A stretch of DNA of 64,000 nucleotides from an uncultured Mycoplasmatota bacterium (GTDB taxonomy: Bacteria > Bacillota_I > Bacilli_A > RF39 > UBA660), in assembly GCA_937944975.1 (NCBI GenBank), contig CALEBF010000012.1:103418-167417 (forward strand). The letters are read 5' to 3'. A program made the translations under genes and the position numbers. Positions 39,810 through 64,000 of the stretch are shown piece after piece. Within the stretch, counting starts at the first letter, position 1. Each line of letters opens with the position of its first letter. The notes beneath the pieces were generated by a model. That model was not told where the DNA came from. It saw only the letters and a list, made by a program, of their open reading frames with translations, and did no database searches.

Positions 39810-40973
39810 TTAAAGCGTTTTTAACGCTTCCTTGATCGCGTCCACTTTGTCAGTTTGTTCCCATGGTAACGAACTTGCATTCCATCCAAAGTGTCCATAA
39901 TTAGATAGTGTTTGGAATTCTACTTTGTCTAAAGAAAGTGCTTCTATCATCTGTGACGGTCTAAAATCAAACACGGTTTCAATGACGTGAAGAAGCGTCT
40001 CTTCTGGATATCGTGCAGTATCGAACGTGTCGATCGAAATCGAGATTGGATTTGCCACTCCAATCGCATAACTTACGGAAACTTCACATTTACGACAACA
40101 ATTTGCAGCAACTAAATTCTTTGCAACATATCTCGTATAATAAGTGGCTGTACGGTCTACCTTGGTCGCATCTTTTCCACTAAAAGCACCTCCACCGTGA
40201 TGGCCAATTCCACCATAAGTATCAGCGATAATCTTTCTTCCCGTTAAACCACTATCCGCAGCAGGTCCACCTAGGACAAAGCGTCCTGTCGGATTGACTA
40301 AAATCTGAATTGAAGCACTGTCCCATCTTGCTTCTAATACTGGATCGATGACGTGTGTTAGTAAGTCTTTACGCAGTTGTGCTAGTTCAATATTCGGCTC
40401 ATGCTGTGTCGATATCAATATCGTTTGAATGCGTACAGGCTCCTCTCCATCGTATTCCATCGTTACCTGTGTTTTTCCATCTGGTCTTAAATATGGAATC
40501 AATTGTTCCTTTCGTACTACTTCTAAACGGTGCGCTAGTTTCGTTGCAAGTTCGTATGGATATGGCATTTTATTTTCCGTATCGGAACAAGCGTATCCAT
40601 ACATCATTCCTTGATCACCAGCACCCAATTGTCCAACGACATCTCGTGCTTGGTCGACTCCCATCGAAATATCCTCAGACTGCGTACGAATGTCTATATC
40701 GATTGGAATCGTATTTCCATTAAATTCTAAAGTATCATGATCATAGCCGATTTCACAGATCGTTTTTCTGATGAGTGGTTCTATTTCTATTTTTGCCTTA
40801 GAACGAACTTCTCCCATGACAAATACGCGACGATAACTCATCGATACCTCGATTGCCACATGACTCTCTGGATCTTCTTTCTTATATGCATCTAAAATGG
40901 CATCTGCAACTTGATCACACACTTTATCAGGATGCCCACAAGTGACAGACTCACATGTTACTAATCTCTTCAT
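39810..40973 (-). CDS. metK: S-adenosylmethionine synthetase
   Basis: GHPDKVCDQVADAILDA, GAGDQGMMYGYA, GGGAFSGKDATKVDRT motifs; GGAGGA RBS. Confidence 0.95.
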   Translation of the reverse strand: MKRLVTCESVTCGHPDKVCDQVADAILDAYKKEDPESHVAIEVSMSYRRVFVMGEVRSKAKIEIEPLIRKTICEIGYDHDTLEFNGNTIPIDIDIRTQSEDISMGVDQARDVVGQLGAGDQGMMYGYACSDTENKMPYPYELATKLAHRLEVVRKEQLIPYLRPDGKTQVTMEYDGEEPVRIQTILISTQHEPNIELAQLRKDLLTHVIDPVLEARWDSASIQILVNPTGRFVLGGPAADSGLTGRKIIADTYGGIGHHGGGAFSGKDATKVDRTATYYTRYVAKNLVAANCCRKCEVSVSYAIGVANPISISIDTFDTARYPEETLLHVIETVFDFRPSQMIEALSLDKVEFQTLSNYGHFGWNASSLPWEQTDKVDAIKEALKTL

Positions 40974-40985
40974 TTTTATCCTCCA

Positions 40986-41113
40986 CTAAAAAACTCCCTA
41001 GAAAGACTAAGGAGCACTCCTCATCTTTCGGTTTCCCGTAGGTTAGCACCACACACTATGGTAGGTTGCTGGGTTTCACAGGGCCTATCCCTCCACCACT
41101 CTTGATAAGGTTA
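40986..41113 (-). ncRNA. SAM-I (S-box) riboswitch with intrinsic terminator expression platform, in metK leader
   Basis: Minus-strand RNA AACCUUAUCAAGAGUGGUGGAGGGAUAGGCCCUGUGAAACCCAGCAACC...GGUGCUAACCUACGGGAAACCGAAAGAUGAGGA matches SAM-I consensus (CUUAUCAAGAG...GAAAGAUGAG, GGUGCUAA); then CUCCUUAG-ucuuu-CUAGGGAG + UUUUUU terminator 12 nt before metK RBS. Confidence 0.85.
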
Positions 41114-41348
41114 CATACAATATAAATGCTAGAAGGACAGTTAACGATAAAACCCAGTCTCCCAGGTGGGCATCACATGAAACACATTAGGATCCTTGCT
41201 CACAAGGGCAAGTTTTCAACACCGTATTTCAATTAGATTCCCAATCGTTATATTTTAGAGTTTTTTCTTAATCTTTATCCCTCTAGCATTTTCATTATAT
41301 CACAATTATATGTGAAAAGATAGTGGTTATGTAGTTTTTTTGCCTAAA

Positions 41349-52565: not shown

Positions 52566-53303
52566 TTACTCCTCCTCTATCTTTAGCTTTGAAAAGTAAC
52601 GATCGATATAGTGATCATGTGCTTTCAAATTCAAGTCTAAATCAAATGGTTGAAATACGACATCCGGATACTTCGTATGGATCATCTCCATCGCGAGGTA
52701 TTGTAGTAGTTCTGGGTTTCGTACTAATACAGGTCCAATTAAATAAGTTCCATAAAAATGATTCTTGTGTACCCCTTCTCTTTTACTGTTCGGATACATT
52801 CCAATTCCTCGCTTTACAGAAAATATCGTAGCGTCATTATTTCTCATCACAGTACACTGATTTTGAAATCCGATGACTGGGGTCTTTAAAAAGTCACACG
52901 TGAAATAACATTCATCGATCATGCGCATCGGTTCTTCTTTGATTTCGTAATCAAACGCACCAAGGCACGCTAACTCCGTATCATCTTTTTGAATCCACTT
53001 CTTGCCAAAAAAATTAAGGGCGCTTCCCGTAATCAAGAAAAACGTACCATTTTCGATTGCCGATAAGATATCATCTTTATATTTCATCAAATGAGTTAAG
53101 ACAAACTTTTCATTTTCTTCCGTTCCTGCTCCAATATAGATAAGATCAAACTTGGAAACATCGATCTCATCATCGACGGAAAGAAAATGAATAACGGGGT
53201 CGATCCCTTGTGTTTCTAATTGTCTTTTTAATGCATTTACATTCCCATGTTCACCATACAAATTTAAAATATCATAATATAGATGTGCGATATGAAATTC
53301 CAT
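52566..53303 (-). CDS. gatD: lipid II isoglutaminyl synthase glutaminase subunit GatD (CobB/CobQ-like GATase)
   Basis: Type-1 glutamine amidotransferase fold directly downstream of murT, 1-nt junction. Confidence 0.75.
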   Translation of the reverse strand: MEFHIAHLYYDILNLYGEHGNVNALKRQLETQGIDPVIHFLSVDDEIDVSKFDLIYIGAGTEENEKFVLTHLMKYKDDILSAIENGTFFLITGSALNFFGKKWIQKDDTELACLGAFDYEIKEEPMRMIDECYFTCDFLKTPVIGFQNQCTVMRNNDATIFSVKRGIGMYPNSKREGVHKNHFYGTYLIGPVLVRNPELLQYLAMEMIHTKYPDVVFQPFDLDLNLKAHDHYIDRYFSKLKIEEE

Positions 53304-54637
53304 TATTTCACCTTCTCTTTCATTAGGGCTTGAAACTGATGTTCCATATCAAATGGGAAAACAAGATAAGCATGCCCTATTGTATTTTCTTCGATGATCG
53401 AAAGCATCGGCGTTGAATCTTCAAAATACGATACTTTCTCCATATCGATATTCGCATACTTTAAACGAACTCCAATATCGTAGGCAAAGCTTCCCATGCA
53501 TACGATCTTTTCGATACTCTCATCTTGCAATAGTTCAAAGTTCACATCATACATCCAAGATATATCTTTGATGTTATACATGATGCTGATGGTATTGAAT
53601 CCTAGAAACACAGTCTTCTTTCCTTTTTGATTACATATATAATCGATCGATTGGTTGTAAGAAATCGGCGTATCGTTTTTACTTAACAATAAAGTTGCCT
53701 CCACTTTTCCAATTTGAAATGTATCGAGCCGTTTTGTCTTTAATTTAAGATGATTTAATGCATAGGCAATCTTTTCTCTATCTACCGCTCCTGATACAAG
53801 TGCGGTTACATATCCTGCAGATAAATTGTAAATCTGATATAGCGCATTATTCTCCGTCTGAATGACTTGCCCATCGATCGTAAAAGAACCGTCATCGTTT
53901 AATACGCTCTCATAAACGACATTAGGGCGAGCAAAATCGTGATTTGGGCAACGATACCCTCCGATATTTCCATAGTGAAAATAATCGAAAATTAATTTAT
54001 GATGACAAACAGGACAATAGCTCAAGTCGAGTGCTCCACTCGCTTTATCCTTAGAATACTTCGTTCGTCTGAGTCCGTAATAGGAAACCTTTCCCTGATG
54101 ATCTAAAGCCATACGATAGATGAGTGGGTCGTCGGCATTCAAGATCAAGTGAATAGAATCTGTAATATTTTCGTGAATGTCATTCCATACGATATCAAAA
54201 TGTCCATTTCTCGCCATTTGATCTCGTGAAATATTGTTTACGATAAAATAATCAGGCTGCATATGCTTAAACACTCTCTTCACGTAGCGTTCATCGATTT
54301 CGATAACTAACACGTCTGTCTTCACTTTTCCTGTAACTGTAGCATTTTCCAAAAGTAAGCTAATGACGCCATCTTCCAGATTCGATCCTTTCGAATTGTT
54401 TCCAACTGTATATCCTGCCTGTTCATAGATTTGACAGAGAATGCCAGAAATCGATGTTTTTCCTGTCGTTCCTGTCACACAGATCGTAATATTAGGAAGT
54501 TTAAATTTACTTAAAATGTTGGGACTTAATTTACGAGCAACCGTCCCTGGTAGAGAACTTCCCCTTCCGAATAATTTTAATATTTTTTGCAATATTTTAG
54601 TAAACATAATTACAAGTACTTTCATTCCATCACCCAT
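53303..54637 (-). CDS. murT: lipid II isoglutaminyl synthase MurT (Mur ligase family with C4 zinc ribbon)
   Basis: Mur-ligase P-loop (ITICVTGTTGKTSISG), CPVCHHKL...CPNHDF zinc ribbon, C-terminal DUF1727-like region. Confidence 0.8.
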   Translation of the reverse strand: MGDGMKVLVIMFTKILQKILKLFGRGSSLPGTVARKLSPNILSKFKLPNITICVTGTTGKTSISGILCQIYEQAGYTVGNNSKGSNLEDGVISLLLENATVTGKVKTDVLVIEIDERYVKRVFKHMQPDYFIVNNISRDQMARNGHFDIVWNDIHENITDSIHLILNADDPLIYRMALDHQGKVSYYGLRRTKYSKDKASGALDLSYCPVCHHKLIFDYFHYGNIGGYRCPNHDFARPNVVYESVLNDDGSFTIDGQVIQTENNALYQIYNLSAGYVTALVSGAVDREKIAYALNHLKLKTKRLDTFQIGKVEATLLLSKNDTPISYNQSIDYICNQKGKKTVFLGFNTISIMYNIKDISWMYDVNFELLQDESIEKIVCMGSFAYDIGVRLKYANIDMEKVSYFEDSTPMLSIIEENTIGHAYLVFPFDMEHQFQALMKEKVK

Positions 54638-59531: not shown

Positions 59532-59546
59532 ATGACAGGGTGTCAT
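59532..59546. promoter_or_regulatory. perfect 6-3-6 palindrome ATGACAgggTGTCAT, candidate TetR operator
   Basis: Located 44 bp upstream of tetR-family gene start in the divergent intergenic region. Confidence 0.4.
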
Positions 59547-59578
59547 GTGTCAACCAAAATAATTATATTTACCACAAT

Positions 59579-59607
59579 TTTACATATTCCTCTTCTTGTG
59601 CTATAAT
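59579..59607 (+). promoter_or_regulatory. sigma-A-type promoter with extended -10 (TTTACA-17-TGcTATAAT)
   Basis: TTTACA 59579-59584, 17-nt spacer, TGCTATAAT ending 59607; AAAGGAGGG RBS then GTG start at 59633. Confidence 0.45.
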
Positions 59608-59632
59608 ACACAGCCAAAAGGAGGGGGTTACT

Positions 59633-60166
59633 GTGGATACATATCTATTTTTAAAAAAATTCTTACAAGAGATGGATGAAGCATTTTCCTATGGTTGGTG
59701 GGATGAAAATAATATTTGTCACAAAGAGACGATGGAAAATTTCCACGAATTATATCGTACTTCTTCGTTAGAACAAGCAGCTAAAAATCATGTGGGAAGT
59801 TGTGTCGAACAATCTTTATATCAAAGAGAGTACTTTACTTATCATAATCTTCCAACGAAACTTTATACTCTCGTTTCTAAAAAAACAGGTGGAACAGGCG
59901 CTGACTTTCGTATACATTGTTTTACTTTAGTATTTAAAGATAACCTCGTCTACCACTTCGAACATGCAAACACTCTCAACCAAAATGTATCTATCTATCC
60001 AAATAAAGAAAGAGCATTTACTAAAATTAAAAAGCTATATAGTATCGGTGATACCGCAGAAACCGAAATATATGAAACGGACAATATACCTGTAGGTTTA
60101 TCTTTACAAGAATTGAAACAAACGGTAGAAAAAAAGAAACCGCAAAAACAATTTTATATCGTATAA
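59633..60166 (+). CDS. hypothetical cytoplasmic protein
   Basis: GTG 59633 (VDTYLFLKKFLQEM...) with strong RBS; the track's longer ATG 59540 start lies upstream of the promoter/RBS signals. Confidence 0.5.
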   Translation: MDTYLFLKKFLQEMDEAFSYGWWDENNICHKETMENFHELYRTSSLEQAAKNHVGSCVEQSLYQREYFTYHNLPTKLYTLVSKKTGGTGADFRIHCFTLVFKDNLVYHFEHANTLNQNVSIYPNKERAFTKIKKLYSIGDTAETEIYETDNIPVGLSLQELKQTVEKKKPQKQFYIV

Positions 60167-61903: not shown

Positions 61904-64000
61904 CTACTTATTAAAAATACTAGATAATTGCTTTACAACTTTTTTTCCTTCAAATTTCGTTTCAAAATCTTCTTTTGATATATAATTTAAAACATACCTT
62001 ATCGTTTCAATTAAATAGGTACGCGCATCTTGTTCTGTACATCCACACAATTCAGCAATTTCTCGAGAACTCTTAATCGGTTTATTTGGAAATCCAAAGA
62101 AAAGATTTAAGATTTTCTCTTGTACAAAATTCAATTTCATTTCATCTGTTGTCAGTGCTTGCTGTACCATTAAACGTAATGCACGGAAATCTTTATCTTG
62201 CAATTGTAATATGTTGTCCTCATTCACATTAGAAATTTTTTCGACAGATGCTAGGATTGCAGGATTCTTAGCTACTTTAGATTGTTTTAATATTAACTTA
62301 GCGCTCTGGATAAACTTTTCTACTTTCCACTCTTTGAAATGGACCTTTTCTGCTATCTCAGAAATTGTCATAGGGGCGACTGTAAAACCATAATAATAAT
62401 TCACACATATTGCTTCTAGTTTTCCTAATTCAAAACTAGCAAATGTAAATTTTGGAAGCAACGTTTGTCTTTCCCTTACCCACATCTTATCTTCTTTAAG
62501 AGACTCAGATGCCTTTTTTTGAATAGAAATAACAGTTTGCTTTAATTCATTTTTAATAGACACGATAGATAACTCAGGATATTTTTCATGTATTTGTTCA
62601 ACAGAATGACGCGTGGTATCAATACCATAAAATTCGTACAATCTTTGATATTTAGGAAGATTTGGTATCGATTGCAACTGTGAAAGTAAAACCATAATTT
62701 CTTCTCTTGAAATCGAATGTAAAAAATCCATCGTCGTATCTTTTTTAGGCATACTTGCCTTTTTATGCAATTCTACTACTCTTGAAAAGTTTGGCAGTCC
62801 TTTTTTACTTTCTACTGCACGATCACAACGGAGTACATAATCTATCACAATACGGCACATTTCTGGCACGGATTCTGTCTTATTCTCCAACCACATTTCA
62901 TACGCTTTTTGATATTCTAATGGAATATATGGTTGATAGATATAATATAAATTTTCATACTCTACTTTCGTTTTTACTGACTCAAAATCTTCCATATCTT
63001 TTTGAATGTCTCGCTTACTACGAAATTGTCTTCTTTTCACCCATGCATCATAGTCATTCATACACCCTTTTAAATCTTTTAAAAGGCGACCTTTCATTCC
63101 GTAAATACTCTGTTGCGCAATATGCATTCGTTCTACCGTTTTGGTTATCAACTCTTCATACGTGTTTGAAGCAAAATAGATCTCTGCAAATTCACGTTCT
63201 CTTGGTGATAACAACATTTTGATCTTCTCATAAACAGGTCTTAGTTGTTCGCGCGTCTGAAAAAAGGATTCGGAATTGCGAGATTTCAGAGGTGCTTTTA
63301 TCTTCTGCTTCTCCTTATTTTTCTTTTCCACCCACTCTTCATAATTATCACTACATTCTCTTAGTTCTTTTAACAGTTTACTTTTCATGACACGAGCACT
63401 CTGTGGAGCGATATTTAATTGTTGTTCTACATTGTTTAAAAATTCTTCCATAGATGTCGATGCAAAATAGATTTCTGCAAACTTTTGCCTTTTTATAGAA
63501 AACATAGACTTTATCTTTTCGTAAGTTGGCCGCACCTCTTCCTTCACAGAAAGAAAATTTTCGAAAGCAAGAGATTTTTTCGCTTTCTGTTTATTACTTT
63601 GTTTTTTTACCCATGCTTGATAATCGGTTTGAAATTGATGCATTCCTACTCGGAAGTTCGTTTTCATATCCAAAATTTGTGATGGTGCTACATGATACTT
63701 GTCAACACACTTCTGTACAAACTCGTCATTTGTATCAGATGACAGGATTAAATCAATGAGTTCTAATTCTCGATCAGTTAAATACGGACGTCCCTTTTCA
63801 TAAAATTCCCCTGTCCTTTTTTGAAATTTTTTCCATGGATTCGTTGCACTTCTCTTTTCTACCCAAGCCACATAATTTTCTTTACATTCTCTAACTTCTT
63901 TCAAAATTTTATACTTCATACGATAAGCACTTTGTAAACTAAGATTCATTTGCTCATGAACCTTTTTCATCAATTCTTCATTTGATGCAGACACCAAATA
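61904..64000 (-). CDS. large protein built of repeated sigma-70 region-4-like helix-turn-helix modules (5' end probably beyond window)
   Basis: >=4 tandem ~100-aa repeats containing (R/K)E(R/Q)xFAEIYFAS(N/T)xxEE(L/F)...IAxQSxxxMK(S/G)(K/R)LLK(E/D)L(R/K)xCx(D/E)NYxxWV(E/K)K plus a C-terminal module SSREIAELCGCTEQDARTYLIETIRYVL; frame open to window end (first in-window Met at 63997). Confidence 0.55.
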   Translation of the reverse strand, partial: YLVSASNEELMKKVHEQMNLSLQSAYRMKYKILKEVRECKENYVAWVEKRSATNPWKKFQKRTGEFYEKGRPYLTDRELELIDLILSSDTNDEFVQKCVDKYHVAPSQILDMKTNFRVGMHQFQTDYQAWVKKQSNKQKAKKSLAFENFLSVKEEVRPTYEKIKSMFSIKRQKFAEIYFASTSMEEFLNNVEQQLNIAPQSARVMKSKLLKELRECSDNYEEWVEKKNKEKQKIKAPLKSRNSESFFQTREQLRPVYEKIKMLLSPREREFAEIYFASNTYEELITKTVERMHIAQQSIYGMKGRLLKDLKGCMNDYDAWVKRRQFRSKRDIQKDMEDFESVKTKVEYENLYYIYQPYIPLEYQKAYEMWLENKTESVPEMCRIVIDYVLRCDRAVESKKGLPNFSRVVELHKKASMPKKDTTMDFLHSISREEIMVLLSQLQSIPNLPKYQRLYEFYGIDTTRHSVEQIHEKYPELSIVSIKNELKQTVISIQKKASESLKEDKMWVRERQTLLPKFTFASFELGKLEAICVNYYYGFTVAPMTISEIAEKVHFKEWKVEKFIQSAKLILKQSKVAKNPAILASVEKISNVNEDNILQLQDKDFRALRLMVQQALTTDEMKLNFVQEKILNLFFGFPNKPIKSSREIAELCGCTEQDARTYLIETIRYVLNYISKEDFETKFEGKKVVKQLSSIFNK

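Follow-up and report, generated by a model that had tools for sequence, protein, structure and literature searches.

The window analyzed here, a 64,000-nucleotide stretch of contig CALEBF010000012.1 from an uncultured Mycoplasmatota bacterium, ends within a gene that appears to encode one long array of helix-turn-helix (HTH) modules related to sigma-70 region 4 and LuxR (GerE)-type domains. Of the functions considered for this poly-HTH protein, the likeliest is multivalent DNA binding, whether as an architectural or nucleoid-type protein, a global regulator or a regulator of clustered sites; we put its probability at roughly one-half. The building block is of a known kind, an ordinary bacterial sigma region 4/LuxR HTH; the family and its architecture, with about ten such domains per chain and no sensor, enzyme or core-binding domain, appear to be undescribed and extremely rare in current databases. 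The gene lies on the minus strand, with its stop codon at 61904-61906 and a reading frame that is open to base 64000. Its 3' two-thirds (698 codons plus the stop codon, 61904..64000) fall within the window and the N-terminal ~320 codons lie past the window end. The closest homologue, P0001, has 1,018 amino acids and matches the whole query at 98% identity; it bears out the proposal in the initial annotation that the frame still open at the window end belongs to a protein of more than 700 amino acids, and we estimate the full length at ~1,000 amino acids. The guanine-plus-cytosine (GC) content of the gene is that of the surrounding sequence. The gene is intact and belongs to the chromosome of Candidatus Fimihabitans, a chicken-gut bacterium.

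The modules and their order

A hidden Markov model (HMM) seeded on the two clearest repeat units matched the window protein at residues 1-51 (E 7.5e-17), 66-139 (E 9e-12), 141-232 (E 3e-52) and 237-330 (E 1.5e-56), with a period of 88-96 amino acids that is far past chance. At least four tandem repeats of ~100 amino acids had been described in the initial annotation; the HMM recovered four, one of them cut, and the earlier consensus agrees with the two best units. The repeat cut by the window end (residues 1-50, 63851..64000, minus strand like all modules) corresponds to unit 3 of the six-unit homologue P0001. It is followed by a unit of type 4 (residues 51-139, 63584..63850), the most divergent copy, a unit of type 5 with its own basic K/E-rich linker (residues 140-236, 63293..63583), and the last unit (residues 237-330, 63011..63292). 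One truncated and three complete repeats are visible, the total number in this strain not being readable from the window alone. The copies share 27-40% amino-acid identity and Tandem Repeats Finder detected no tandem repeat in the gene at the DNA level, indicating that the repeats are old.

Next in the chain is a central domain (residues 331-423, 62732..63010) with the motif YYxYQPYIPxEYQ and four confidently predicted helices, for which no known relative was found. Three further modules complete the protein: HTH-A (residues 424-513, 62462..62731; ...YQRLYEFYGIDTTRHSVEQI...), HTH-B (residues 514-603, 62192..62461; ...LEAICVNYYYGFTVAPMTISEIAEKV...) and HTH-C with the C-terminal tail (residues 604-698, 61907..62191; RALRL...FFGFPNKPIKSSREIAELCGCTEQDARTYLIETIRYVLNY). 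Comparisons with hhalign linked HTH-B to HTH-C with a probability of 96% (E 2e-9), HTH-A to HTH-B with 79% (E 1.6e-5), HTH-A to HTH-C with 85% (E 6.2e-6), and the repeats (profile A5, described below) to HTH-B with 85% (E 6e-6). By these links, the protein is one long array of homologous modules. When iterated over the family, the repeat HMM also detected a degenerate unit in the N-terminal ~70 residues (E about 1e-10) and, in a paralogue, a C-terminal HTH. The order is thus a degenerate N-terminal unit, three to seven repeats, the ~90-amino-acid central helical domain, HTH-A, HTH-B and HTH-C. In total the array has about ten region 4/LuxR-type HTH modules; the tandem repeats among them, of ~90 amino acids each, are joined by linkers that are basic and probably helical.

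Relationship to sigma region 4 and LuxR-type domains

The repeats of the window protein had no match in curated family libraries. The sole match in this protein fell in HTH-C, at residues 644-663, and was to Sigma70_r4_2 (PF08281; E 0.013; 15.6 bits against a gathering threshold of 25.7). Sub-threshold as it is, this match corroborates the further C-terminal HTH that had been proposed from sequence inspection. Across the family, the best score to Sigma70_r4 (PF04545) came from one repeat of the homologue P0009 (23.2 bits, E 4.9e-5, profile positions 5-50; threshold 24.1). GerE (PF00196; threshold 23.5 bits) did not match the window protein and stayed below threshold in the distant relatives P0010 (16.7 bits) and P0011 (12.3 bits) and in a paralogue at locus L013 (21.0 bits).

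We also compared profiles with the sequences of the PDB. Profile A5, a repeat profile that includes the repeats of distant homologues, matched EvgA (E 0.007), GerE (E 0.024) and FixJ (E 0.28), as well as RpoH, RpoD and YlxM; the match to the YlxM structure 1xsv (E 0.32) was not significant. The LuxR/GerE members aligned in register across some 50 residues, with a single 4-residue gap, and the EvgA match covered the whole domain. Profile A1, built from close homologues only, returned nothing significant and was set aside, its top matches being spurious ones to polybromo and ESX. With the C-terminal profile A4, 19 of 21 matches were sigma region 4 chains, the best of them Thermotoga maritima RpoD region 4 (1tty_A, E 0.019). 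Both HTH-B (with 1tty_A and SigA/HrdB region 4) and HTH-C (with SigA region 4, profile positions 287-327) aligned in register, and the three C-terminal modules resemble primary-sigma region 4 most.

An AlphaFold2 model of the last repeat unit, computed from an alignment of 18 paralogous and orthologous units, has five helices, of which the recognition helix spans unit residues 60-79 (predicted local distance difference test (pLDDT) 84, predicted template modelling score (pTM) 0.73). The predicted model has the fold that defines the sigma-70 region 4 superfamily, a four-helix bundle with an HTH that can be superposed on solved domains. Foldseek searches with this model pointed to YlxM and sigma region 4; the E-values were weak, as is to be expected of a helical domain of ~70 residues. 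A search of a viral library yielded HTH and sigma proteins. In a model of the C-terminal 368 residues (pLDDT 52), only the central four-helix domain was confident, and this model was not used for fold searches. Although no single number is strong, these independent lines agree, and we therefore place the module, as a divergent member, in the sigma region 4/LuxR (GerE) HTH superfamily. The original assignment to sigma-70 region 4/LuxR-type HTH domains is thus supported by profiles A5 and A4, by the P0009 repeat and by the homology among modules, without any curated threshold being reached.

Putative multivalent DNA binding

Two protein classes were rejected. No Sigma70_r2, r1 or r3 domain was found at E <= 1 in the window protein or in full-length P0001, P0009, P0010, P0011 or P0014; because it has no region 2, the protein is not a sigma factor. 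A secreted or membrane protein is ruled out by a maximum Kyte-Doolittle value of 0.93 over a 19-residue window, and no signal peptide is present; the protein is soluble, basic (isoelectric point 9.2) and all-helical.

The array also differs from each known system to which its modules can be compared. Sigma factors have one region 4 (PF04545/PF08281) per chain, whereas here about ten copies occur without region 2 or 3, and the -35-reading arginines of region 4.2 do not appear to be kept in the repeats. Unlike LuxR/GerE proteins (the NarL/FixJ effector HTH), the poly-HTH protein has no receiver or ligand domain, a 4-residue insertion lengthens the helix ahead of the recognition helix, and the modules are covalently linked in tandem instead of dimerising. 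YlxM is a single-domain protein of ~110 amino acids whose gene lies beside ffh. The likeness to YlxM/UPF0122 (PDB 1xsv, 1s7o) is at the level of the fold only: Pfam PF04297 matched neither the window protein nor the homologues tested, the unit is repeated here, and the proteins of the family are multi-domain, 550-1,100 amino acids long and without linkage to ffh. With regard to the C-terminal HTH domain of WhiA (PDB 3hyi, 8dy9), the LAGLIDADG-like N-terminal domains are absent here and there was no sequence match to WhiA families. In eukaryotes, tandem HTH arrays such as Myb R1R2R3 and the Pipsqueak domain carry several HTHs per chain that read adjacent stretches of DNA. These provide an analogy and no homology is claimed; their HTH subfamilies are unrelated and their arrays hold 2-4 units of ~50 amino acids.

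If the protein binds DNA, each module would set its own recognition helix in a major groove, and the array would cover or bridge a long or clustered set of sites, which would make it either an architectural protein associated with the nucleoid or a global regulator. The number of units would then set the footprint, which would change with the gain or loss of units. Such a protein would give the poorly known, genome-reduced RF39 lineage a bacterial chromatin protein or global regulator of a new type, and would also show tandem HTH arrays evolving by unit duplication, loss and allele exchange. Positive charge is focused on the linkers and on the recognition helix, which carries +2.8 per unit; the helix ahead of it is acidic. 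Lys67 of the recognition helix is invariant and the same position is basic in EvgA in the A5 alignment; it is basic in FixJ and in the GerE consensus as well. Alternatively, the protein could be a helical scaffold that does not bind DNA, in which HTH modules have been re-used for protein or RNA binding, for example in an accessory role like that of YlxM, with the K/E-rich linkers as spacers. We consider this unlikely, as the recognition helix holds net positive charge and an invariant lysine, the proteins matched in sequence over the full domain (EvgA, GerE and sigma region 4) are proven DNA binders, and no genomic context links the family to an ffh or signal recognition particle gene.

Several observations weigh against multivalent DNA binding or against the module assignment beneath it. 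The window protein reaches no curated HMM threshold, E-values at the sequence level are marginal (0.007-1), and the fold is a prediction from a shallow, within-family alignment. In the repeats, the -35-reading arginines seem to be replaced by Q, S and Y, and the HTH helix preceding the recognition helix exceeds its counterpart in GerE or EvgA by one turn. Tandem Repeats Finder identified no candidate target array of DNA repeats within the 64-kb window, and we know of no settled DNA-binding role for YlxM, the closest structural relative. Finally, no neighbouring gene is conserved across the lineages compared, so the genomic context indicates no pathway.

Family, alleles and genomic neighbourhood

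A word-indexed search of 5.8 billion proteins returned only nine clusters, the first with 110 members of 812-1,018 amino acids from independent samples. An exhaustive HMMER scan with the full-length profile, run against 1.84 billion representatives, yielded just eight proteins at E <= 0.001, five of which are distant relatives (P0010-P0014) with the whole layout or parts of it; four more distant loci (L010-L013) came from other metagenome assemblies, at least one of them from human gut. The carriers are a handful of uncultured low-GC gut bacteria. Among GTDB species representatives, Candidatus Fimihabitans intestinipullorum carries the gene, as does a related uncultured Bacilli metagenome-assembled genome (MAG). 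The genus Fimihabitans is classed under Mycoplasmatota at NCBI and in order RF39, family CAG-822, by GTDB (PMC8035907). No source names any member of the family, which is without a name, Pfam model or annotation, and a literature search on tandem region 4/LuxR arrays and on Fimihabitans found nothing relevant.

Close full-length homologues span 740-1,098 amino acids and have their N and C termini in common. Their repeat number is three (P0008), four (L002), five (L001, P0004, P0005), six (P0001) or seven (P0002, P0003), and the repeat junctions have the look of crossing-over between unequal partners at conserved motifs. Each array position has its own ortholog type across strains, except in the L002/P0008 lineage, where units 1-3 are alike. 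Within the gene interior, nucleotide identity between strains drops to 63-91% while the flanks are 96-100% identical (window 61904-64000; L001 10100-12600, L002 and L003). Synonymous divergence (dS) is high in the interior and in the N-terminal domain, and the last ~90 codons are almost invariant in all strain pairs compared. The ratio of nonsynonymous to synonymous divergence (dN/dS) is 0.05-0.6 in nearly all 50-codon blocks, with two short blocks above 1; the gene is under purifying selection. Because dS is also high while dN/dS stays low, the hotspot points to old divergent alleles exchanged by recombination and not to a burst of positive selection, which we rejected as its cause at the resolution of 50-codon blocks.

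These data bear on whether the reading frame is a decaying or artefactual one, from a pseudogenised repeat region, as the initial annotation had allowed, or from misassembled repeats. The variation in repeat number between assemblies could be taken that way, as could a database variant (P0006, 805 amino acids) that goes out of frame beyond the central domain and finishes with unrelated sequence, being either a frameshifted allele or a sequencing error. However, more than 110 near-identical full-length members come from independent samples, synteny holds across three independent loci (L001, L002 and L003; two from named MAGs), each unit type is kept at its own position, and distant homologues have the same layout. 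Together with the purifying selection and the common N terminus of the full-length homologues, this makes an artefact barely credible and in practice refutes it.

A further alternative is that the modules mimic sigma region 4 and bind its partners other than DNA, namely the beta-flap tip of RNA polymerase, anti-sigma factors or region 4-targeting phage proteins. In this role the protein would tether polymerase, sequester it or serve as a decoy for anti-sigma-type proteins, which would be a new mode of transcription control. Against mimicry, the dN/dS pattern indicates old alleles and not ongoing positive selection, and no sigma, anti-sigma or defence gene adjoins the locus in any lineage. Nor is there a defence-system or phage-family match: P0001 had nothing below E 0.07 in PADLOC or below E 0.002 in PHROGs, the only lower values being those of two distant relatives, P0014 (a partial CARF match, E 1e-4) and P0012 (a sigma-factor PHROG, E 0.001), and tblastn found no match in phage and plasmid collections. 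We regard mimicry, in either form, as improbable.

By analogy with zinc-finger and TALE (transcription activator-like effector) proteins, one could also imagine a modular DNA reader in which each position-specific HTH unit reads its own short site, so that the chain as a whole recognises a long composite sequence. Where strains gain, lose or exchange alleles of units, the array would be directed to new targets. The protein would then be the first such poly-HTH array known from nature in bacteria, and engineered DNA recognition might use it as a scaffold; we view this prospect as a long shot.

In Fimihabitans, the gene order is Peptidase_M23, DUF188, the poly-HTH gene, FTHFS, an unknown gene, TetR, two ABC transporters and MurT/GatD. 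The DUF188 (YaiI/YqxD family) gene (L001 9571-10008) overlaps the start of the poly-HTH gene (10001) by 8 nt, and a promoter-like TTGATT-17-TATAAT site was seen by eye upstream of DUF188 only, which suggests a two-gene operon. In Bacillus subtilis, yqxD heads the dnaG-sigA operon, so that linkage of DUF188 to sigma-related genes may recur. A pattern scan detected no terminator in the 64-nt gap between the poly-HTH and FTHFS genes. By eye, an AGAACAT-loop-ATGTTCT hairpin followed by T's lies right after the stop codon; it is too AT-rich for the pattern scan. The neighbours differ elsewhere: among distant relatives, one gene order is MutL, Hydrolase_4, the poly-HTH gene, ProRS, RadC, MreC and MreD, with Hydrolase_4 and ProRS as the neighbours in L010 and L011; L013 has KdgT and a family paralogue, and L014 has unrelated genes in a 28%-GC host.

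Some loci carry divided or shortened versions. At L013, a 361-amino-acid protein (7974-9059) has the central domain and three HTHs only, and 5 nt after it is a gene (9064-10608) for a 514-amino-acid protein with five repeats and one terminal HTH. As this head-to-tail pair divides the modules, the poly-HTH architecture can be split between two genes. L005, like L013 a distant lineage, also has two family genes head to tail (1180-2991 and 2993-3568). The 544-552-amino-acid version in L014-L016 (9977-11635; 28%-GC host) has two repeats and no N-terminal unit, and its C-terminal half has 70-86% nucleotide identity to the window gene. DUF1835/DUF3658 lies upstream of it, and downstream are a 1.4-kb stretch without called genes and then a GH25 lysozyme.

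Other features of the window include a 208-amino-acid open reading frame (59540-60166, plus strand) between the TetR and FTHFS genes; a gene is called at the equivalent place in L003, with no Pfam match on record. A MurT/GatD pair (52566-54637, minus strand; Mur_ligase_M plus MurT_C, and GATase_3) was assigned by synteny with L003 and argues for amidated peptidoglycan, and therefore a cell wall, despite the filing of this lineage under Mycoplasmatota at NCBI. Finally, a 6S RNA gene (41122-41292, minus strand; 55 bits) is directly upstream of an S-adenosylmethionine (SAM) riboswitch (41018-41111, minus strand; 68 bits), both RNAs lying ahead of the open reading frame at 39810-40973.
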